A stretch of 16,307 nt of DNA from a virus. The position numbers were made by a program, and so were the translations under genes. Below, in pieces: positions 1 through 5,965 of the stretch. The notes beneath the pieces are model-generated. The model ran no database searches, was not told the origin of the DNA, and saw only the letters and a list, made by a program, of their open reading frames with translations. Where the stretch lies: positions 1 to 16,307 of IMG/VR virus record IMGVR_UViG_3300045988_104128; one strand, written 5' to 3'. The first letter of the stretch is position 1. Each line of letters opens with the position of its first letter.

Positions 1-95
1 TAAAGTGGTGACGCATTGCAGTGGTACAGCGTTAGCACGTCAGCGTGGTACCGTGAGCGCACGAAGTTAGTTGTGTCTAACTTAGTACCATAGTA
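1..95. repeat. Left inverted terminal repeat (95 bp)
   Basis: Bases 1-95 are the exact reverse complement of 16213-16307, compared base by base. Identity breaks at 96 versus 16212. The repeat starts TAAAGTGG, which is the phi29-family AAAGT terminus preceded by one extra T. It contains GTGGTG at 5 and GTGGTA at 21 and 45 (24 bp apart), plus the palindrome AAGTTAG-N6-CTAACTT at 64-83. Confidence 0.95.
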
Positions 96-175
96 CTATA
101 TAAAATGTTCACAATTTGTTTACAATTTGTACATACGCTGTTCACAACTGACCTATATAATGTACTTAAAGATAA
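94..175 (+). promoter_or_regulatory. Early promoter/leader box, copy 1 (homologous to 2244-2310)
   Basis: TACTATATAA at 94-103 and CCTATATAAT at 152-161 are -10-like. ATAAAATGTTCACAATTT (100-117) recurs with one mismatch at 2245-2262, and ACATAC ... CTATATAAT ... AAAGA follow in the same order in both copies. I could not place a convincing -35 element, so the exact promoter is uncertain. Confidence 0.45.
111..130. repeat. Tandem near-palindromic 9-mers ACAATTTGT x2, 11-bp period (operator-like)
   Basis: ACAATTTGT occurs at 111-119 and again at 122-130. Each copy is an ACAA-n-TTGT palindrome. The homologous box at 2244-2310 has only one degenerate copy (ATAATTTAG). Confidence 0.6.
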
Positions 176-215
176 AGGAAAGGGGTACTTAAAGAGAGTG
201 CCAAAGGTGTATAGT

Positions 216-533
216 ATGAAGAAATATATTGAACTTAATAACGAGACTTTTGAGGTCAAAAAAGCCAAGGGTGAATTGCACCCTATTACACAAGTCCGTA
301 CATTAATGGATTGTTACGCAAGACCTAGCGATATCAAAAAAGCTATATACAATGATTGGTTTAATTGGTATCTATCTGTGGATAGTCCAAAGTATCAAAT
401 AGTCAATATGTCGATACAATCGTACAATGTAAATATGTTCACTATTCGTATGGATGTATTTGATACCAAAACATATGAATTTATAGGTTGCCTTTATATA
501 TCCAAAACGAGGCAGGAGTTTTGGACTATCTAG
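216..533 (+). CDS. Hypothetical early protein (105 aa)
   Basis: ATG at 216 has AAAGGTG about 6 nt upstream. The longer track ORF from 105 would read through the promoter-like boxes. I recognise no family. The C-terminal EFIGCLYISK resembles DFISCLIVKR at the end of the 2428-2598 product. Confidence 0.75.
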   Translation: MKKYIELNNETFEVKKAKGELHPITQVRTLMDCYARPSDIKKAIYNDWFNWYLSVDSPKYQIVNMSIQSYNVNMFTIRMDVFDTKTYEFIGCLYISKTRQEFWTI

Positions 534-540
534 TATAGTC

Positions 541-561
541 GGGTCGGTGCAACTCCGACCC
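541..561 (+). other. G+C-rich hairpin with T-loop-like loop (GGGTCGG-TGCAACT-CCGACCC)
   Basis: A 7-bp perfect stem with a 7-nt loop TGCAACT lies 8 nt after the stop at 533. No U-tract follows. It shares the 13-mer CGGTGCAA[C/G]TCCG with the element at 1124-1142. Confidence 0.7.
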
Positions 562-570
562 ACTTGTATC

Positions 571-588
571 GCTGATAACACTATCAGC
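571..588 (+). other. Second hairpin GCTGATA-ACAC-TATCAGC
   Basis: A 7-bp perfect stem with a 4-nt loop lies 10 nt after the first hairpin. No U-tract follows. Confidence 0.6.
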
Positions 589-634
589 AAGTAACAAATA
601 AACAATCATAAAAACAAAAAAGGAGACAAAAACT

Positions 635-919
635 ATGAGAAAATCGAAAATGGTAACTAGAACAATCGTAACTACAAATGCTGAGATAATGTGTTTTAAT
701 CTCGATACAAATGAGGTTATAACATTAACTGAGTCATATATCGGGGATTTATCCGATAAGGACATCGAAAAACAGTTTTCTGTTGATTATGCCAACAGCG
801 CTAAATTTTTGAAACTTGTAAGCGCAGAGAAAACTACAAAATTGTATGGCATACCTGAAAAAGAATTTTTGCAGTACGCTGTAGAACTCGACAGCGAAAC
901 TAGAAAAGAGGTGAGATAG
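635..919 (+). CDS. phi29 p6-like dsDNA-binding (histone-like) protein, paralogue A (94 aa, no acidic tail)
   Basis: SD AAAAGGAGAC lies upstream. The protein aligns with the 2701-3033 product along its length (MRKxxMVTRTI.T, C.N..T, G, KD, LYG..E.EF, LD..TRKE). The pattern also resembles phi29 p6 as I recall it (ITKTTVNVAKMV ... VYELPVEKFLEVA). Confidence 0.7.
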   Translation: MRKSKMVTRTIVTTNAEIMCFNLDTNEVITLTESYIGDLSDKDIEKQFSVDYANSAKFLKLVSAEKTTKLYGIPEKEFLQYAVELDSETRKEVR

Positions 920-920
920 T

Positions 921-1097
921 ATGATAAATCTGGAATACGGCAAATCAATGTATGGCGGTTGGTATGCACAATCTAATAATCAAGATATAGCGTTAAGAGC
1001 TGTCACTTTAAAGGAACTAAAAGAAAAAGTATCAAAATTATGTATAAACGCTAAATTAACAAAACGTTTTGATAATTTAGGTAATGGAATTTTATAA
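921..1097 (+). CDS. Hypothetical early protein (58 aa)
   Basis: This ORF is absent from the track because it is under 60 aa. ATG at 921 sits 2 nt after the upstream stop, with AAAAGAGGTGAG just upstream. TAA stop at 1095-1097. Confidence 0.65.
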   Translation: MINLEYGKSMYGGWYAQSNNQDIALRAVTLKELKEKVSKLCINAKLTKRFDNLGNGIL

Positions 1098-1101
1098 ACA
1101 T

Positions 1102-1149
1102 AGCCTAAGCGAAAAAGCGCACAGCGCGGTGCAAGTCCGCGCGTAGGCT
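1102..1149 (+). other. tRNA top-half-like structured element (outer stem AGCCTA/TAGGCT enclosing T-arm-like hairpin GCGCGG-TGCAAGT-CCGCGC)
   Basis: The outer 6-bp stem pairs 1102-1107 with 1144-1149. The inner 6-bp stem pairs 1124-1129 with 1137-1142 around the loop TGCAAGT (tRNA T-loop consensus TTCAAGT). A 16-nt linker (1108-1123) occupies the place of the D and anticodon arms. The element starts 5 nt after the stop at 1097. Confidence 0.6.
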
Positions 1150-1189
1150 TTACAATTGAATACAGTAAAGAATGAAAAGAGGTGAAAAT

Positions 1190-1381
1190 ATGACAGTTCA
1201 AGATTTATTTAGAGTTTTGTCGGATTACGAAAAAGTATCATTCAACACAAAATGTGTAACTGGTGTATGGTATGGACTTGTAAAAGATATTCCTAGTAGT
1301 TATTTTGACTATATAATAGAGTCAATCTATTCTATGTCACACGTTGACGGAAGTAGTTATTTAGTTATTAACTTTGCATAA
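1190..1381 (+). CDS. Hypothetical early protein (63 aa)
   Basis: ATG at 1190 has GAAAAGAGGTGAAAA directly upstream. The track start at 1172 lies inside that SD cassette. Confidence 0.75.
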   Translation: MTVQDLFRVLSDYEKVSFNTKCVTGVWYGLVKDIPSSYFDYIIESIYSMSHVDGSSYLVINFA

Positions 1382-1428
1382 ACTTTATAGTTCAATACAG
1401 CAAAGAGTGAAAAGAGGTGAAAAAATAA

Positions 1429-1629
1429 ATGACTAATAATATAAAGTTGGGAACATTAGTCAAATTGAGTGTAACCACCAGTTTTTGGTTACACGATATT
1501 CAGTACGATATTGACGAGTTCTACACACGTTCTCAAATATTGGAGAACAAACAATTATCACGTATGAAAGTGATAAGTTTTAAAGCATTGGCAGGAAAAG
1601 AAATGATATACGTAAAAGTAGAAGAGTGA
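1429..1629 (+). CDS. Hypothetical early protein (66 aa)
   Basis: ATG at 1429 is preceded by the same cassette, TACAGCAAAGAGTGAAAAGAGGTGAAAA. Confidence 0.75.
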   Translation: MTNNIKLGTLVKLSVTTSFWLHDIQYDIDEFYTRSQILENKQLSRMKVISFKALAGKEMIYVKVEE

Positions 1630-1644
1630 AAAGAGGTACAAACC

Positions 1645-1941
1645 ATGTTATACAAAAATAGAAAAATGGCACAGTCGGAAGTTGATGAAATCTATGAAGA
1701 TTTCGTTATAGAGATAGCGACAAAAGTCGCTAAACAAGTAAAAGGAAAAGTGTATTATGGTTTTGCCACAGTAGAAGATATGTGGTACGTCATAGTAAAG
1801 ACACGTGAACTCGGAGAAAAGCGTTTTTTCCTTGATACACTCGATTATGATATGTTAAGCGGTGTATCATCAAAGGAAATAGCCGATAACATAGTCAAAT
1901 TTTATCGCAAAATAATTGAGAGGAGATTTTTTATAATATGA
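1645..1941 (+). CDS. Hypothetical early protein (98 aa)
   Basis: ATG at 1645 is preceded by AGAGTGAAAAGAGGT. The 3' end overlaps the next start (ATGA). Confidence 0.75.
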   Translation: MLYKNRKMAQSEVDEIYEDFVIEIATKVAKQVKGKVYYGFATVEDMWYVIVKTRELGEKRFFLDTLDYDMLSGVSSKEIADNIVKFYRKIIERRFFII

Positions 1942-2186
1942 CAAATAAAAGAATGCATCAATTAGAGCGCAAGGTTAGAGTGGGTTTCAAAAACTTTAAT
2001 CAAATAATATATCCAAAAAATGTCGAATTTAAATTTTTAGAGCAAATTAGATATTTAATGTTTGAAAACATACGATTTGAACATTATAGAGGTAATATAA
2101 CTATTAGTGAATTGCATTTTATGGCACGTTGTCTTAGAAGTTATTATTGGTATTACAGAATAGAGATAGATAAGAATTTTGGCTAG
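1938..2186 (+). CDS. Hypothetical early protein (82 aa)
   Basis: The start overlaps the upstream stop (ATGA), and GAGAGGAG lies upstream. The product is basic and aromatic-rich, with no recognisable family. Confidence 0.7.
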   Translation: MTNKRMHQLERKVRVGFKNFNQIIYPKNVEFKFLEQIRYLMFENIRFEHYRGNITISELHFMARCLRSYYWYYRIEIDKNFG

Positions 2187-2243
2187 TTTACACAAGTTTT
2201 CGTAAATTTTCGTAAAATACAGAAAACTAATTGTGGAACAGTT

Positions 2244-2310
2244 CATAAAATGTTCATAATTTAGACATACTGCATTTACATCACTACTGTACTATATAAT
2301 ATGTAAAGAG
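2244..2310 (+). promoter_or_regulatory. Early promoter/leader box, copy 2
   Basis: ATAAAATGTTCATAATTT, ACATAC and GTACTATATAAT (2289-2300) are collinear with 100-161. A possible arrangement is TTGTGG (2231-2236), 18 nt, CATAAT (2255-2260). A further TACTATATAA lies at 2350-2359. Confidence 0.45.
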
Positions 2311-2358
2311 GTATTACACCATTTACAAAAAAGTTACGTTTTGCTTCAATACTATATA

Positions 2359-2399
2359 ACCGCACTATTGCTAGGCAACACGACACTCAATAGTGCGGT
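2359..2399. promoter_or_regulatory. 12-bp perfect inverted repeat ACCGCACTATTG-N17-CAATAGTGCGGT (operator or 5'-leader hairpin)
   Basis: The arms are 2359-2370 and 2388-2399, perfectly complementary. The left arm abuts the TATATAAC box. The element lies 29 nt upstream of the 2428 start and has no U-tract. Confidence 0.6.
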
Positions 2400-2427
2400 C
2401 TCCTCAAAGAAAAGGAAGTGATTAACA

Positions 2428-2598
2428 ATGATAGAAACATTATACGCACAACTCATATCAGACCCTAATACACGCAAGGTACTATGTCGAACAGACAAAC
2501 GTAACGTCACAACAGAAACAATCTATCGTGACGATTGCAAAATCATAATTCGTCACAAACTAGATGACTTTATTTCATGCCTTATAGTTAAGAGATAG
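2428..2598 (+). CDS. Hypothetical early protein (56 aa), possible truncated paralogue of the 216-533 product
   Basis: This ORF is not in the track because it is under 60 aa. ATG at 2428 has AAAGGAAGTGA upstream, and the TAG stop is at 2596-2598. The C-terminus DDFISCLIVKR compares with YEFIGCLYISK. Confidence 0.6.
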   Translation: MIETLYAQLISDPNTRKVLCRTDKRNVTTETIYRDDCKIIIRHKLDDFISCLIVKR

Positions 2599-2631
2599 CA
2601 AGCTATCGCAAAACAGATTGCAAAAATCAAC

Positions 2632-2660
2632 TTGACTAATACACCTATTGGTGTTACAAC
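2632..2660 (+). promoter_or_regulatory. Candidate sigma-A-type promoter for the p6-like/SSB/TP/polymerase operon
   Basis: TTGACT (2632-2637), a 17-nt spacer, then TGt-TACAAC (2652-2660, extended -10). Confidence 0.45.
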
Positions 2661-2700
2661 TTTATTACAAATCATAATACATAGAAAAGGAGACAAAATT

Positions 2701-3033
2701 ATGAGAAAACCAATGGTCACACGTACAATTATTTCAACAGCAGTAAAAGCATTATGTGTAAATCCACAGACAGCAGATACTTTTGAGCAGGATTTTACAC
2801 TTAGTGGTAAAATTCTCGAAAAAGACAAGGCTTTAAGAAAAGCATCAAAACTTTATAACACAGATGAATGTACAATCGTTGCAATTCGTGAACTTAAAGA
2901 AGTAAATGAGCTTTACGGTATGGATGAAGCAGATTTTATTGCAGGTGCAAAAATACTCGACCCTGCTACACGTAAAGAGATTGAGACAGAGCAGGCAGAC
3001 GCAGAAATAACAGAGCAGGCAAACGCAGAATAA
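2701..3033 (+). CDS. phi29 p6-like dsDNA-binding (histone-like) protein, paralogue B (110 aa, acidic Q/E/A tail)
   Basis: ATG at 2701 has the same AAAAGGAGACAAAA leader as paralogue A; the track start at 2632 is a non-ATG upstream extension. The acidic tail ETEQADAEITEQANAE resembles the phi29 p6 tail. The gene order p6-SSB-TP-Pol matches phi29 genes 6-5-3-2. Confidence 0.75.
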   Translation: MRKPMVTRTIISTAVKALCVNPQTADTFEQDFTLSGKILEKDKALRKASKLYNTDECTIVAIRELKEVNELYGMDEADFIAGAKILDPATRKEIETEQADAEITEQANAE

Positions 3034-3055
3034 AAAGAAAAGGAGATAAACAATT

Positions 3056-3412
3056 ATGGCAATTACAATTAACACACAATCAAAGGATTTCACAGAGGTA
3101 GAACAGTATCTTATGACCCTTGACAGAGGTATTAAGTCTCTTAAGGACGTAGAGGACAATACATCTTTTCCAGTGGCAGGCTATCTTACATTCACAGATG
3201 AAAAAGACAATGGTGATAGCGTTGACATTTTGTCTATCATTACACCTGACAAAGAGGTATTCTCTTGTCAGTCAGCTACTTTCAAGCGTAGTTTTGATAA
3301 CATTACCAACATCATGCACGACAAACAGTTTAGTATCATTAAAGTTAGTGGTACAGCAAAGAACGGCAGATCTTATATTGACTGCGCACTCGATGTGAAA
3401 TCAGTAAAATAA
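3056..3412 (+). CDS. phi29 p5-like single-stranded DNA-binding protein (118 aa)
   Basis: SD AAAGGAGA lies upstream. The C-terminal FSIIKVSGTAKNGRSYIDCALDV parallels phi29 p5 FKVKVVQGTSSKGNVFFSLQLSL as I recall it. The gene sits between the p6-like gene and the TP/Pol pair. Confidence 0.65.
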   Translation: MAITINTQSKDFTEVEQYLMTLDRGIKSLKDVEDNTSFPVAGYLTFTDEKDNGDSVDILSIITPDKEVFSCQSATFKRSFDNITNIMHDKQFSIIKVSGTAKNGRSYIDCALDVKSVK

Positions 3413-3485: not shown

Positions 3486-4025
3486 ATGGCAAAAAAAAGA
3501 TTATCAAAAAACCAACAGCAATATGCTAAATTAATCAATGAAGCTATAGAACAGAATATAAGCGTAAAAGGTATTAAGGCTTTTCCAAAACATATAACAC
3601 AGCAAACTTTACAAGATTTAGCAGAAGAAATACAACAAAGAAAACAAGCACAACAGCATACTATTACTGATGAAATAATATCACGTTTACAAGCATTACC
3701 AACTAAAAAAGTAACATATGATAAAGCTAATGGAACTCAATATATTATTGATTTATCAGAGTTTACTAATACGTGTTTATCAATAATAAAAAATATGCAG
3801 GAAACGTTTGGTATAGAAGAATACGAAGAATATTTGCAGAAAAATGCTGAGGATATTATAGACTCATTAGATACTATTATTAAAACGCATTATAGTGGTG
3901 AAGTGTCAGCAGAGACAGAACGTATTATACCTATATTATCAAATCACGATATGTCAATGGCTACTGCAACAATGACAAGTGATATTAATGACTATTTTAA
4001 TTGGTCTGATATTGATAATATATGA
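3486..4025 (+). CDS. Putative terminal protein (179 aa)
   Basis: The gene lies immediately upstream of the protein-primed polymerase gene and overlaps it (ATGA), as phi29 gene 3 does with gene 2. The basic N-terminus MAKKRLSKNQQQYAKLI recalls phi29 TP MARSPRIRIKDNDKAEYARLV. The C-terminus is acidic. No other ORF is a better candidate. The assignment is by position. Confidence 0.5.
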   Translation: MAKKRLSKNQQQYAKLINEAIEQNISVKGIKAFPKHITQQTLQDLAEEIQQRKQAQQHTITDEIISRLQALPTKKVTYDKANGTQYIIDLSEFTNTCLSIIKNMQETFGIEEYEEYLQKNAEDIIDSLDTIIKTHYSGEVSAETERIIPILSNHDMSMATATMTSDINDYFNWSDIDNI

Positions 4026-5965
4026 AAAATGTACGTTCTTTTATGTGTGATTTTGAAACTACTGTATATGCAGGACAGTCATCAACAGAAGTATGGGCTA
4101 GTGCTAGTGTAGAATTTTATACAGAGAATGTAAATATTTTTCATTCAATAGGTGAGCAGTTTCAATATTTTAAAACATTAAATTGTAATGTAATAGCTTA
4201 TTATCATAACCTTAAATTTGACGGCAATTTTTGGTTGTCATATTTATTACAAAAATTAAAAATGAAACAGGCTTTTATTCCATACAATGATGAGGGTACA
4301 GTAGGTGAATTTTTAAAAAATAAAGAAATGAAAAATAATACTTTTAAATATACAATATCATCAATGGGACAATGGTATTCGATAACTATAAAAACAAATA
4401 ATCACATAATAGAATTAAGAGATAGTTTAAAGTTATTGCCATTTTCTGTAAAGCAAATAGGTAAATCTTTTAACACTAAACATCAAAAATTAGAAATGGA
4501 ATATACCGGTTATAGATATGCAGGATGTAATATAACGGATGAAGAAAAGAAATATATAGCAAATGACGTATTAGTAGTAAAAGAAGCACTCGAGCAGTTG
4601 TTTAATGATGGACATGATAAACTAACAATAGGTTCATGTTGTATGGAAGAATATAAAAAATCATTACAAGCATATGATTATAAAGAATTATTCCCACCAT
4701 TGGATGAAATCGAAATTGATAAAAATATATTCGGTTCAAGTAATGCTGATGAATATATACGACGTAGTTATAGAGGGGGTTGGTGCTATTTAGTAAAAGG
4801 AAAAGAAAATATTATTAGACATAATGGTGTGACAGCAGATGTAAACTCTTTATATCCTAGTATGATGCACTCTCAAAGTGGTAATTATTTTCCAATAGGT
4901 AAACCATATTTTTGGACAGGTAATATAATACCTAATGAAGCTATAGGTGAAAATAAATATTACTTTTTAAGAATAAAAACACGCTTTTATATCAAAGAAA
5001 ATATGTTACCATTTATACAGATAAAAAGTAACTACTTATATAAAGGAACAGAGTCATTATCTACAAGTGATATTTTAAATAAAGACGGGACGTATAGTAG
5101 GTATTATAAAGATATATACGGCAACTTACATGACAGTACAGTAATAATGACAGTAACCATGACAGATTACAAACTAATGTTAAAACACTATGAACTAGTT
5201 GATTTTGAAATTTTAGACGGATGTTGGTTTTATTCCATGAAAGGAATATTTGATAACTACATCAATCATTATGCAGAAATTAAAATGAACAGTAAAGGTG
5301 CAAAGCGTACAGAAGCAAAACTGTTTCTCAATAACCTTTATGGTAAACTTGCTAGTAGTTCTAATAGTAGTTTTAAGGTTGCATACGTCAAAGATGACGA
5401 CAGTATAGGCTTTTACATAGTCCCTGCTAATAATAAAAAGGTAGGTCATATAGCAACAGGCAGTGCAATAACATCCTATGCCCGTAACTTTACGATAACA
5501 GCCGCTCAAAAAAATTACTATGGTGTAGATAAAGCAGGATTTATTTACGCTGACACTGACAGTATACATTGTGACTTGCCTGCTGATAAGATAAAAGGCA
5601 TAACAGTAGACCCTGTAAAATTTTGCTGTTGGAAGCTTGAAAGCAGTTGGGACACAGCTATTTTTACAAGGCAGAAAACATACATAGAACACATAACTCA
5701 CAACGATTTAGTTCCTGTTGATGAACCATATAACGATATTAAATGTGCAGGAATGCCACAGAAATGTAAAGATTTATTTAATAAATCAATGCAGGGTTAT
5801 GAAGCAAAGGAGAGTGATAACTATACGCAAAGGGAATTAAAATTCTTAGAAACAAAAAGAGACTATAGTGATTTTAAAGTTGGGTTATGCGTTCCCGGAA
5901 AATTGCTACCAAAAAGAATTAAAGGTGGTGTATTATTGGTGGACACAACTTATGAAATGAGGTGA
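4022..5965 (+). CDS. Protein-primed family-B DNA polymerase (phi29 gp2-like, 647 aa)
   Basis: Motifs seen: ExoI CDFETT, ExoII YHNLKFDGNF, ExoIII YIANDVLVVKEAL, motif A DVNSLYPS, motif B KLFLNNLYGKLAS, motif C IYADTDSIH, KxY RQKTYIE, and C-terminal GGVLLVDTTYEM. All are close to the phi29 polymerase motifs. Confidence 0.97.
   Translation: MKNVRSFMCDFETTVYAGQSSTEVWASASVEFYTENVNIFHSIGEQFQYFKTLNCNVIAYYHNLKFDGNFWLSYLLQKLKMKQAFIPYNDEGTVGEFLKNKEMKNNTFKYTISSMGQWYSITIKTNNHIIELRDSLKLLPFSVKQIGKSFNTKHQKLEMEYTGYRYAGCNITDEEKKYIANDVLVVKEALEQLFNDGHDKLTIGSCCMEEYKKSLQAYDYKELFPPLDEIEIDKNIFGSSNADEYIRRSYRGGWCYLVKGKENIIRHNGVTADVNSLYPSMMHSQSGNYFPIGKPYFWTGNIIPNEAIGENKYYFLRIKTRFYIKENMLPFIQIKSNYLYKGTESLSTSDILNKDGTYSRYYKDIYGNLHDSTVIMTVTMTDYKLMLKHYELVDFEILDGCWFYSMKGIFDNYINHYAEIKMNSKGAKRTEAKLFLNNLYGKLASSSNSSFKVAYVKDDDSIGFYIVPANNKKVGHIATGSAITSYARNFTITAAQKNYYGVDKAGFIYADTDSIHCDLPADKIKGITVDPVKFCCWKLESSWDTAIFTRQKTYIEHITHNDLVPVDEPYNDIKCAGMPQKCKDLFNKSMQGYEAKESDNYTQRELKFLETKRDYSDFKVGLCVPGKLLPKRIKGGVLLVDTTYEMR

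Follow-up and report, generated by a model that had tools for sequence, protein, structure and literature searches.

Phage phi29 encodes a single p6, the 104-aa 'histone-like' dsDNA-binding product of gene 6 (PF17548, PHROG 6370; structures 8PW2 and 8PW4), and both p6 and the single-stranded-DNA-binding protein (SSB) are very abundant during infection (PMC4974454). Removal of the last 20 residues of p6 results in tighter DNA binding (Kd 1.47 versus 2.46 uM) and lower stability (PMC10899789). In a review of these phages, p6 homologues are placed only in the Salasmaviridae and Enterococcus faecium strains and p6 paralogues go unmentioned (PMC11476376). For the small early proteins p0.6 and p0.8 of phi29, a duplication within the genome has been proposed (same review, Evseev et al. 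2024), which is a precedent for early-gene duplication in phi29-like phages, although the protein family differs from the one described below.

The window, meaning the whole stretch of 16,307 nucleotides analysed here, represents a complete phi29-like podophage of the gut, 16.3 kb long and bounded by terminal repeats of 95 bp (6 bp in phi29), and its IMG/VR record is classed under inverted terminal repeats. Like that of phi29, the genome is linear and presumably protein-primed. Unlike phi29, it lacks the p4 partner, as a PF05464 search of the window gave no match. The hosts are gut Clostridia-type bacteria, not Bacillus as for phi29; Clostridium symbiosum is the host of the nearest cultured relatives. 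In place of one p6 gene the window carries two, A and B, and the ORFs were found where the initial annotation had put them:

1–95, strand not assigned: left inverted terminal repeat, the first 95 nt being the reverse complement of the last 95 nt
100–161, plus strand: P1 upstream box of the first early operon (18-mer ATAAAATGTTCACAATTT, phased motifs, CTATATAAT)
216–533, plus strand: small early ORF, 105 aa, with orthologues in 39 loci
541–588, plus strand: two stable G+C-rich RNA hairpins between ORF 216–533 and gene A (predicted fold)
635–919, plus strand: gene A, very probable upstream tail-less p6 paralogue, 94 aa (profile, model, residues)
2241–2300, plus strand: P2 upstream box of the second early operon (18-mer with one mismatch, phased motifs, CTATATAAT)
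2359–2399, plus strand: perfect 12-bp inverted repeat in the P2 leader, RNA hairpin or operator (repeat search)
2428–2598, plus strand: small early ORF, 56 aa, with 44 orthologues
2701–3033, plus strand: gene B, canonical p6 orthologue by position, with acidic tail, 110 aa (profile, model, synteny)
2986–3033, plus strand: 24-nt tandem repeat, two copies, coding for the acidic tail of B (TEQADAEI / TEQANAE; repeat search)
3056–3412, plus strand: homologue of the phi29 p5 SSB, 118 aa (jackhmmer, hhalign)
3486–4025, plus strand: candidate terminal protein (TP), 179 aa (position only)
4022–5965, plus strand: protein-primed family B DNA polymerase (sequence identity)

The homology of A and B to phi29 p6 is distant but has good support. 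Both are of comparable size (94–110 aa), but identity to p6 is only about 20–24% and lies below the Pfam threshold, with the p6 model PF17548 matching neither A, B nor any other clade member even at E 10. The family phrog_6370 was matched end to end by A (E 1.5e-5), B (E 4.8e-6) and four relatives, phi29 p6 itself scoring 3.5e-40. A profile of 138 clade sequences aligned with 10 Salasmaviridae p6 proteins over 79 columns (hhalign, 97.5% probability, E 6e-12) and, in each of phi29, GA-1 and Athos, picked out gene 6 alone, one p6 place each, which agrees with the single gene 6 ascribed to phi29. The best PDB sequence match was the p6 entry 8pw4. The AlphaFold (AF2) models (pLDDT 93.5 for A; 88.9 for B, with a disordered tail at residues 99–107) both returned 8pw4_A as best PDB match in Foldseek with probability 1.0 (E 1.3e-4 and 2.3e-3, respectively), and the BFVD matches were p6 proteins with TM up to 0.9. 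p6 is a hinged protein, and the TM-scores of the two models to its crystal structure were modest (0.38–0.53). A, B and p6 have in common a predicted fold in which a beta-sheet core is accompanied by alpha1, of 12 residues, and a short alpha2. Seven of the nine p6 signature residues defined in PMC10899789 occur in A (K2, R6, T11, G37, Y69, F76, A80; with A44 to I and V59 to L) and seven in B (R6, T11, G37, A44, Y69, F76, A80), R6, T11, G37, Y69, F76 and A80 thus being shared by all three proteins. The basic residue equivalent to Lys2 of p6 is kept in A, and is replaced by Pro in B and the other canonical copies.

The two proteins were 31% identical end to end (BLASTP, E 3e-11), with a Smith-Waterman score of 111 (shuffles 28.4 ± 5.1). 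Together with the phrog_6370, hhalign and 8pw4 matches, this bears out the initial view of two divergent p6-like proteins that align throughout. A and B are very probably p6-family paralogues derived from an old duplication. In public records the p6 label already stands on A-type proteins, since UWD51281.1 (a metagenome-assembled genome entry, 'Histone-like Protein p6') is 82% identical to A, and A0A8S5NGX7 (Podoviridae sp. ct2nF21) matches the A model at TM 0.88–0.91, the best BFVD match being named 'Histone-like Protein p6' at that TM. However, these records name single proteins, and a second canonical copy in those genomes goes unmentioned.

Gene B occupies the place of phi29 gene 6. As in phi29, it directly precedes the SSB gene within the replication operon, ORF 3056–3412 being a clear p5 homologue (jackhmmer 9.5e-21; hhalign 99.0%, E 7e-18). 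The TP candidate follows, directly 5' of the polymerase gene and overlapping its ORF; it had no match in Pfam and PHROG family searches. The polymerase is 33% identical to those of phi29, Nf and M2 over 99% of its length, and 64–65% identical to those of C. symbiosum phages CS229P1-3 and MT835814. The p6-SSB-TP-Pol order claimed for B was therefore recovered, as was the restriction of the acidic tail to B within the pair (net tail charge −6 versus 0 in A); like p6, B ends in a disordered acidic tail. In relatives, B is either 102 aa (one repeat unit) or 110 aa (two units). A, encoded in the leftmost early operon close to the left terminus as had been noted, corresponds to a natural tail-less p6 consisting of the core and alpha2. 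It thereby resembles p6C-delta20 and p6C-delta31 (Alcorlo et al. 2024, PMC10899789), but those are laboratory constructs, whereas A is a conserved gene under purifying selection beside a tailed copy. Acidic tails do occur on the upstream copies of some other lineages, and the tail-less state is thus a feature of a subgroup only.

A survey of related genomes, suggested with the initial annotation, found the pair to be widespread. The complete left arm was present in all close relatives with two copies detected (38/38), whilst single-copy or no-copy loci of this group all had a truncated left arm. A second clade had both copies in 24/24 genomes, as did most members of a third group with 66–69% polymerase identity. 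The pair is also found in phages whose polymerases are 64–69% identical, and so is not a feature of the window genome alone. The A/B duplication is very probably older than the splits within a large group of phi29-like phages of the human gut. Both genes are under purifying selection (dN/dS 0.07–0.18; A 0.07–0.14, B 0.18). Our favoured reading is that, in these gut phages, the p6 of phi29 is split into two forms, and that this split is ancient and conserved.

B is the positional, and probably functional, counterpart of phi29 p6, most likely coating phage DNA and opening the terminal origins for initiation by protein priming. A is a separately maintained, faster-evolving, tail-less form belonging to the leftmost early operon. 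As loss of the tail raises the affinity of phi29 p6 and lowers its stability, A may be an unshielded, tighter DNA binder. We infer DNA binding for both proteins, with A acting as its own homodimer, likely early in infection and/or at the 11-nt-phased bent arrays of both promoter boxes and the adjacent left end. These arrays comprise four GTTYAYAA-like motifs each (107, 118, 129 and 140 in P1; 2241, 2252, 2263 and 2274 in P2), and to regard them as p6 binding sites is only an analogy with the 11–12-bp period of GA-1 and phi29 p6. A and B would then divide between them two roles, origin activation and promoter silencing, which phi29 unites in its one p6; we propose this specific division of labour tentatively. 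Judging from their common ribosome-binding site (RBS) of the strongest class, AAAGGAGAYAAA (at 3039–3050 for the SSB gene), A, B and SSB would all be highly expressed.

Alternatively, A and B could form an obligate heterodimer or a mixed filament, with a tail-less and a tailed protomer on DNA. phi29 p6 uses its tail and helix alpha2 to dimerise (PMC10899789), both paralogues retain F76 and A80 in alpha2, and nearly every genome has both genes. Furthermore, the left-end gene of 21–23-kb relatives encodes two non-canonical p6 domains fused in tandem, usually with an acidic tail on the second domain only, which mimics such a pair. However, these relatives also keep a separate canonical p6, somewhat weakening the idea, and each fused domain has its nearest neighbour in its partner or in another fused domain rather than in a canonical copy, which suggests that the upstream form pairs with itself. 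A and B also sit in different operons, and we consider obligate pairing unlikely.

Somewhat less probable still is that A is a xenologue, recombined from another phi29-like phage into a mosaic left arm, rather than a paralogue of B. In the best tree the upstream copies fell into three or more separate lineages, the stem of window-type A was very long (1.2–1.8 substitutions per site), and left-arm gene content is highly variable among relatives. Against this, all clade copies, upstream and canonical, grouped against Salasmaviridae p6 (support 99–100), a single origin of the upstream copies was not rejected (AU p 0.12), and their position is stable across clades. The canonical copies formed one clade (83/90). 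The deep branches of the tree are poorly resolved, and one duplication, several, or inter-phage transfer all fit.

A might instead be a non-architectural modulator built on the p6 fold, such as a filament-capping or anti-host protein, given its accelerated stem branch, the lost tail and the changes at positions 44 and 59. This is improbable, as A retains the DNA-binding residues K2 and R6 together with the core T11, G37, Y69, F76 and A80, is under strong purifying selection (dN/dS 0.07), and has the high-expression RBS class of B and the SSB gene.

The initial annotation had further proposed that box, small ORF and p6 gene were duplicated as one segment. The order of these elements is alike in both regions, and the 18-mers (100–117 and 2245–2262) differ by one mismatch, where 0.14 matches with up to three mismatches are expected by chance; the second boxes (142–161 and 2281–2300) are 85% alike. 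The resemblance noted between the small ORFs did not hold: no relation was detectable by hhalign (probability 0.1%), their Smith-Waterman score of 35 (shuffles 23.3 ± 4.2) was equalled by 2–3% of shuffles, and their jackhmmer families never merged. Neither had a match in Pfam or PHROG (E below 0.01 for ORF 216–533). The leader reported for both genes, AAAGGAGACAAA followed by ATGAGAAAA, is present at each (Shine-Dalgarno AAGGAG at 620–625 for A; 2687–2692 for B), but is not specific to the pair, since AAAGGAGAYAAA also precedes the SSB gene; every p6-like copy in relatives is preceded by a similar A-rich Shine-Dalgarno leader, and the AATCATAA part was not conserved among these. At the DNA level, 90–920 and 2240–3035 shared only a 64-nt match over the RBS and first codons (score 54; shuffles 24.7 ± 2.8), and the RNA leaders are unlike, the one before A forming two stable hairpins (534–634, −23.9 kcal/mol, z −4.9), the one before B none (z −1.3). 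With unrelated small ORFs, a generic strong RBS, little shared DNA and an ancient duplication, duplication of a module is unsupported.

A recent segmental duplication in the window genome followed by divergence is thus highly improbable, despite the common element order, boxes and RBS with first codons, as the proteins are only 31% identical against 94% for the 18-mers, and phages with 64–69% identical polymerases have the pair without the 18-mer. It is accordingly function, rather than recent shared ancestry, that kept the boxes alike; their likeness in itself fits shared regulation as well as common descent. P1 was kept in 36 distinct relatives and P2 in 38, the latter always with CTATATAA 47 nt after the 18-mer start. 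By reading, both boxes contain −35-like hexamers at the wrong spacing. ORF 2428–2598 is limited to the close group (87–94% polymerase identity). The hairpin region 541–588 had no match in Rfam, and the P2 leader (2301–2427), which contains the inverted repeat, folded with z −3.4.

Both p6-like genes proposed in the initial annotation were present, the upstream copy (A, 635–919, 94 aa) and the canonical copy directly before the SSB gene (B, 2701–3033, 110 aa), as were the small ORFs at 216–533 and 2428–2598. The two p6-like proteins aligned end to end and had diverged strongly, as had been described (31% identity, E = 3e-11 in BLASTP; Smith-Waterman score 111, shuffles 28 ± 5). Against the 101-position PHROG 6370 profile, A matched at positions 2–91 (E = 1.5e-5) and B at positions 1–98 (E = 4.8e-6). 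Matches of A, B and four relatives ran end to end with E values from 2.5e-6 to 0.07, and phi29 p6 scored E = 3.5e-40. The Pfam model PF17548 (threshold 25 bits), made from close Salasmaviridae sequences, recovered phi29 p6 at 182 bits and gave no match for A, B or the four relatives, even at E = 10. Comparison of 138 clade sequences with ten Salasmaviridae p6 sequences in hhalign gave 97.5% probability and E = 6e-12 across 79 columns (N-terminus through helix alpha2). A 40-row clade profile identified a single place per genome in phi29, GA-1 and Enterococcus phage Athos, in each case the annotated gene 6 (E = 4.6e-5, 1.8e-4 and 1.6e-6, respectively), and the best match of the clade profile among PDB sequences was 8pw4, 'Histone-like protein p6' (E = 0.013). 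At E = 1e-3, phi29 p6 was missed by a seed HMM built from six sequences, whereas the 40-row profile and hhalign reached it.

Structure prediction agreed with these searches. AlphaFold2 models of A and B had pLDDT values of 93.5 and 88.9, respectively, the B tail being disordered. In both, the predicted order of elements was strand, strand, 11–12-residue helix, strand, short helix; the p6 fold consists of a four-stranded antiparallel sheet with a 12-residue alpha1 between beta3 and beta4, and a short alpha2. The models of A and B thus have the p6 fold. Foldseek placed 8pw4_A as the top PDB match of both by a wide margin (probability 1.0; E = 1.3e-4 for A and 2.3e-3 for B; TM 0.38–0.53), which upheld the proposed relationship of both proteins to p6. 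In BFVD, the A model matched a 'Histone-like Protein p6' of an uncultured podovirus (TM 0.88–0.91) and Bacillus phage p6 proteins (TM 0.6–0.7). Uncharacterised proteins of Staphylococcus phages S13' and JBug18 and of Streptococcus phage SOCP also matched this model (probability 1.0, TM 0.4–0.6). On the basis of such models, p6-like proteins may be general to small protein-primed podophages.

The p6 protein binds dsDNA co-operatively and independently of sequence each 11–12 bp, restrains positive supercoils and stimulates TP-primed initiation. Its signature comprises the absolute residues K2, R6, G37, A44, V59 and F76, plus T11, Y69 and A80 (PMC10899789, Alcorlo et al.). Seven of these nine are retained in A (K2, R6, T11, G37, Y69, F76 and A80, with A44 changed to I and V59 to L) and seven in B (R6, T11, G37, A44, Y69, F76 and A80, with K2 changed to P and V59 to I). 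Both retain R6, which matters most for DNA binding (PMC4974454). An NCBI protein 82% identical to A (UWD51281.1) bears the name 'Histone-like Protein p6'. A and B extend a known family by new and distant members, the p6 name for the A type being already public, and very probably represent p6-family DNA-binding paralogues that arose from an old duplication.

The first 95 bases of the window are the reverse complement of the last 95, and the IMG/VR class of the record is ITR-bounded; the 16,307 bases make up a complete linear genome of a phage. In many close relatives (those reaching beyond the window start were L026, L029, L030, L032, L039–L041, L043 and L050), about 53 nt lie past the first base of the window, comprising GGGGTCGTTTCGAACGTCGAGATTTTTGGTACACCCCATGCACTGCGCAGTGG and then TAAAGTGG...; the GGGG end adjoins a remnant of an Illumina adapter in L050, so the true genome end probably falls outside the window. 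The family B polymerase (4022–5965) shared 33% identity over its whole length with the phi29, Nf and M2 polymerases, and 64–65% with those of human faecal contig MT835814 and Clostridium symbiosum phages CS229P1-3. The phage, a phi29-like podophage, falls outside Salasmaviridae and infects gut hosts of the Clostridia type. The whole window contains no p4 homologue (PF05464; p4 regulates late transcription in phi29), and the early/late switch must therefore differ from that of phi29. The ORF directly after B (3056–3412) had no family match in family scans; a jackhmmer search seeded with it reached phi29 p5 at 9.5e-21, and hhalign of its family against p5 gave 99.0% (E = 7e-18). This p5 homologue confirms that B stands in the phi29 order B(p6)-SSB-TP candidate-Pol.

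A and B differ in tail, N-terminus and position. The C-terminus of B is acidic and disordered (pLDDT <50 at residues 99–107) with a net charge of −6, whereas A ends in DSETRKEVR with a net charge of 0; of the pair, B alone has the acidic tail, as had been noted. Upstream copies of certain other lineages do carry an acidic tail. A 24-nt tandem repeat, present in two units (2986–3033), codes for the B tail. Relatives carry one or two units, giving B forms of 102 or 110 aa, so that the population is polymorphic for tail length. At the position equivalent to Lys2, all 59 upstream copies had K or R, whereas 58 of the 60 canonical copies had Pro. B lies directly before the SSB gene, and A 1.8 kb upstream of B in another operon. 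Both are under purifying selection (dN/dS 0.07–0.14 for A, 0.18 for B).

Close metagenomic orthologues of each paralogue numbered in the hundreds, on contigs of ~16 kb. We surveyed 80 IMG/VR loci located via the polymerase, and the pair proved common in relatives rather than special to the window. Two copies were detected in 38 loci of the close group (87–94% polymerase identity), the left arm being complete in 38/38, and the single-copy loci of this group were truncated. Two copies also occurred in most genomes of the 66–69% polymerase group, and a second clade (64–66% polymerase identity) had an upstream copy and a copy directly before SSB in 24/24 genomes. Single-copy genomes were represented by CS229P2, MT835854 and probably the types of loci L070 and L073, and the retained copy was the canonical one in every case. 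In trees built on 98–99 columns, in which deep branches were poorly supported, all clade copies grouped together against Salasmaviridae p6 (support 100/99). Canonical copies formed one clade (83/90; 84% of bootstrap trees), and upstream copies formed three lineages in a basal polytomy; holding the latter together cost only 1.08 log-likelihood units (AU P = 0.12). The stem of the window-type upstream lineage was long (1.2–1.8 substitutions per site), indicating faster change in this lineage. The simplest reading is one ancient duplication, with an upstream copy that evolved faster and was sometimes lost; several duplications, or exchange between phages, are possible alternatives.

A clade-profile search of 1.84 billion representative proteins returned 2354 clusters (50% identity) at E ≤ 1e-3. 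A 2024 review gave the range of p6 as 'Salasmaviridae and Enterococcus' (PMC11476376); judged by sequence, the family extends far beyond this. At least 15 of the best 150 matches contained two p6 domains in tandem (173–204 aa), with halves 28–80% identical and the acidic end usually on the second half only. Searches of IMG/VR (proteins P0255, P0258, P0274 and P0259), JGI metagenomes (P0255) and GenBank phages (P0255) gave no genes for these fused p6-p6 proteins; such genes were found by exact look-up in ENA assemblies.

Fused p6-p6 genes and accompanying canonical copies on two ENA metagenome contigs
L124:657-1232, fused p6-p6 gene, first gene at the left end, verified on DNA
L125:516-1082, fused p6-p6 gene, first gene at the left end, verified on DNA
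L124:5416-5715 and L125:4470-4775, single canonical p6 before SSB-TP-Pol

Both are phi29-like contigs of 21–23 kb, and their fused proteins (188–191 aa) have the linker GGRTRER. Their canonical copies fell within the canonical clade of the tree, and the fused domains outside it. The combination of a fused left-end gene with a canonical p6 indicates that the two-form layout is old and widespread.

The initial annotation had further claimed that a promoter box, a small ORF and a p6 gene were duplicated together. The promoter boxes, P1 (100–161) and P2 (2241–2300), are indeed related: the 18-mer ATAAAATGTTCACAATTT (100–117) recurs at 2245–2262 with one mismatch (0.14 matches expected at ≤3 mismatches), and the boxes also agree by 85% in a further piece that ends with CTATATAAT. 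Kinship of the small ORFs did not hold up. Their Smith-Waterman score (35 versus 23.3 ± 4.2) was equalled by 2–3% of shuffles, and their orthologue families (39 and 44 members) stayed apart in jackhmmer, with an hhalign probability of 0.1%. The leader AAAGGAGAYAAA does precede both A and B but is not specific to the pair, as a third copy stands before the SSB gene; it is a strong ribosome-binding site with three occurrences in the genome. Its extra match, AATCATAA, was not conserved in relatives, and a similar A-rich Shine-Dalgarno leader preceded every p6-like copy in every relative. DNA alignment of 90–920 with 2240–3035 recovered only 64 nt, consisting of the RBS and first codons (score 54 versus 24.7 ± 2.8). 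The three-part duplicated module was therefore rejected; what remains is a pair of related genes and a pair of related promoter boxes.

Consensus alignments showed both promoter boxes to be strongly conserved in close relatives. Within the close group, nearly every genome had the 18-mer at both sites, and at the second site it always lay 47 nt before CTATATAA; more distant clades had both p6 genes and lacked the 18-mer. Each box contains four GTTYAYAA-like motifs spaced by exactly 11 nt, and 5 of the 14 exact motif matches genome-wide fall in these two 45-nt stretches.

GTTYAYAA-like arrays of the early promoter boxes
107–147, P1, motifs at 107, 118, 129 and 140, conserved in close relatives
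2241–2281, P2, motifs at 2241, 2252, 2263 and 2274, conserved in close relatives

A sigma-70 consensus scan of both boxes found no convincing −35/−10 promoter (P2, TTTACA-16-TAATAT with 9 of 12 matches; P1, nothing). Phased A/T-rich motifs of this kind point to bent DNA or to binding of one face by a multimer. The binding period of p6 is 11 bp in GA-1 and 12 bp in phi29, where p6 complexes at the genome end repress C2, an early promoter close to that end (PMC10899789, PMC4974454). By analogy, we infer that the 11-nt arrays could be loading sites for a p6 paralogue.

We propose that B would act like phi29 p6, as an abundant protein that binds DNA co-operatively without sequence specificity, and that the wrapped B-DNA complex would open the genome ends for terminal-protein priming. 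A would be a second architectural protein, in this subgroup without the electrostatic tail 'shield', that keeps its N-terminal basic residues and would be expressed from the promoter closest to the end of the genome. Tail-truncated phi29 p6 binds DNA more tightly (Kd 1.47 versus 2.46 µM; PMC10899789). A would form homodimers that act at an early stage of infection and/or on the left end and the promoter arrays, and the two roles of phi29 p6 would be divided between A and B in a phage without p4. This specific division of labour is put forward tentatively. A broader version, held with equal reserve, is that gut phi29-like phages might have p6 permanently split into a tailed form in the replication operon and a self-dimerising left-end form (tail-less in this subgroup). 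On this reading, the single-chain p6-p6 tandem of some lineages would be a hard-wired left-end form. It is also possible, if somewhat doubtful, that the left-end form takes over early-promoter silencing and first loading at the genome end; its targets under such a split would likely be the conserved 11-nt-phased arrays of the two early promoter boxes. In phi29, early-promoter silencing and end loading need p6 together with p4 and p17.

Among other readings of the pair, an A-B heteromer is unlikely, since in the fused relatives the left-end form seems to be its own partner. Less probable again is that recombination brought in A; the long stem of the window-type upstream lineage speaks for this, and the grouping of all clade copies against Salasmaviridae p6 speaks against it. 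Least probable is that A, which retains R6, is a modulator that does not bind DNA.

p6 is the model viral genome-organising protein; its structure was solved only in 2024, and reviews continue to restrict it to Salasmaviridae. Taken by itself, the window yields mostly good annotation and no new mechanism; the searchable literature gave no account of the conserved two-paralogue layout, of the tail and K2/Pro differences or of fused tandems. Our analysis adds that the p6 family is far larger than described and present in abundant human-gut phages, many of which have a conserved p6 paralogue pair, or a fused tandem plus a single copy. A and the fused tandem are natural counterparts of the tail-less and covalently dimeric constructs, respectively, with which p6 has been dissected, and they offer a direct test of the influence of the tail and of dimerisation on DNA wrapping, on the opening of origins and on promoter control.

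One RBS class is common to A, B and the SSB gene, whereas the small early genes lying between the two p6 genes have a different one, GAAAAGAGGTGA. p6 and SSB are made in large amounts during phi29 infection (PMC4974454), and the common RBS class suggests that A is too. The RNA leader before A (534–634) contains two stable hairpins (z −4.9); that before B has none (z −1.3). Stable G+C-rich hairpins of early intergenic regions, those before A included, lie at 541–588, 1100–1150 and 2359–2399, the fold of 2301–2427 having z −3.4. These lacked a T-tract and any Rfam match (a scan of 1–3300 was empty), and may serve RNA stability or processing, or act as operators. Four consecutive small early genes are preceded by leaders of a second class, GTGAAAAGAGGTGAAAA; the proteins of these genes had no pairwise similarity above shuffles.

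Leaders of the GTGAAAAGAGGTGAAAA class
905–921, before gene 921
1168–1188, before gene 1190
1403–1423, before gene 1429
1622–1642, before gene 1645

Among these leaders, 51 nt are repeated at 1141–1191 and 1376–1426.
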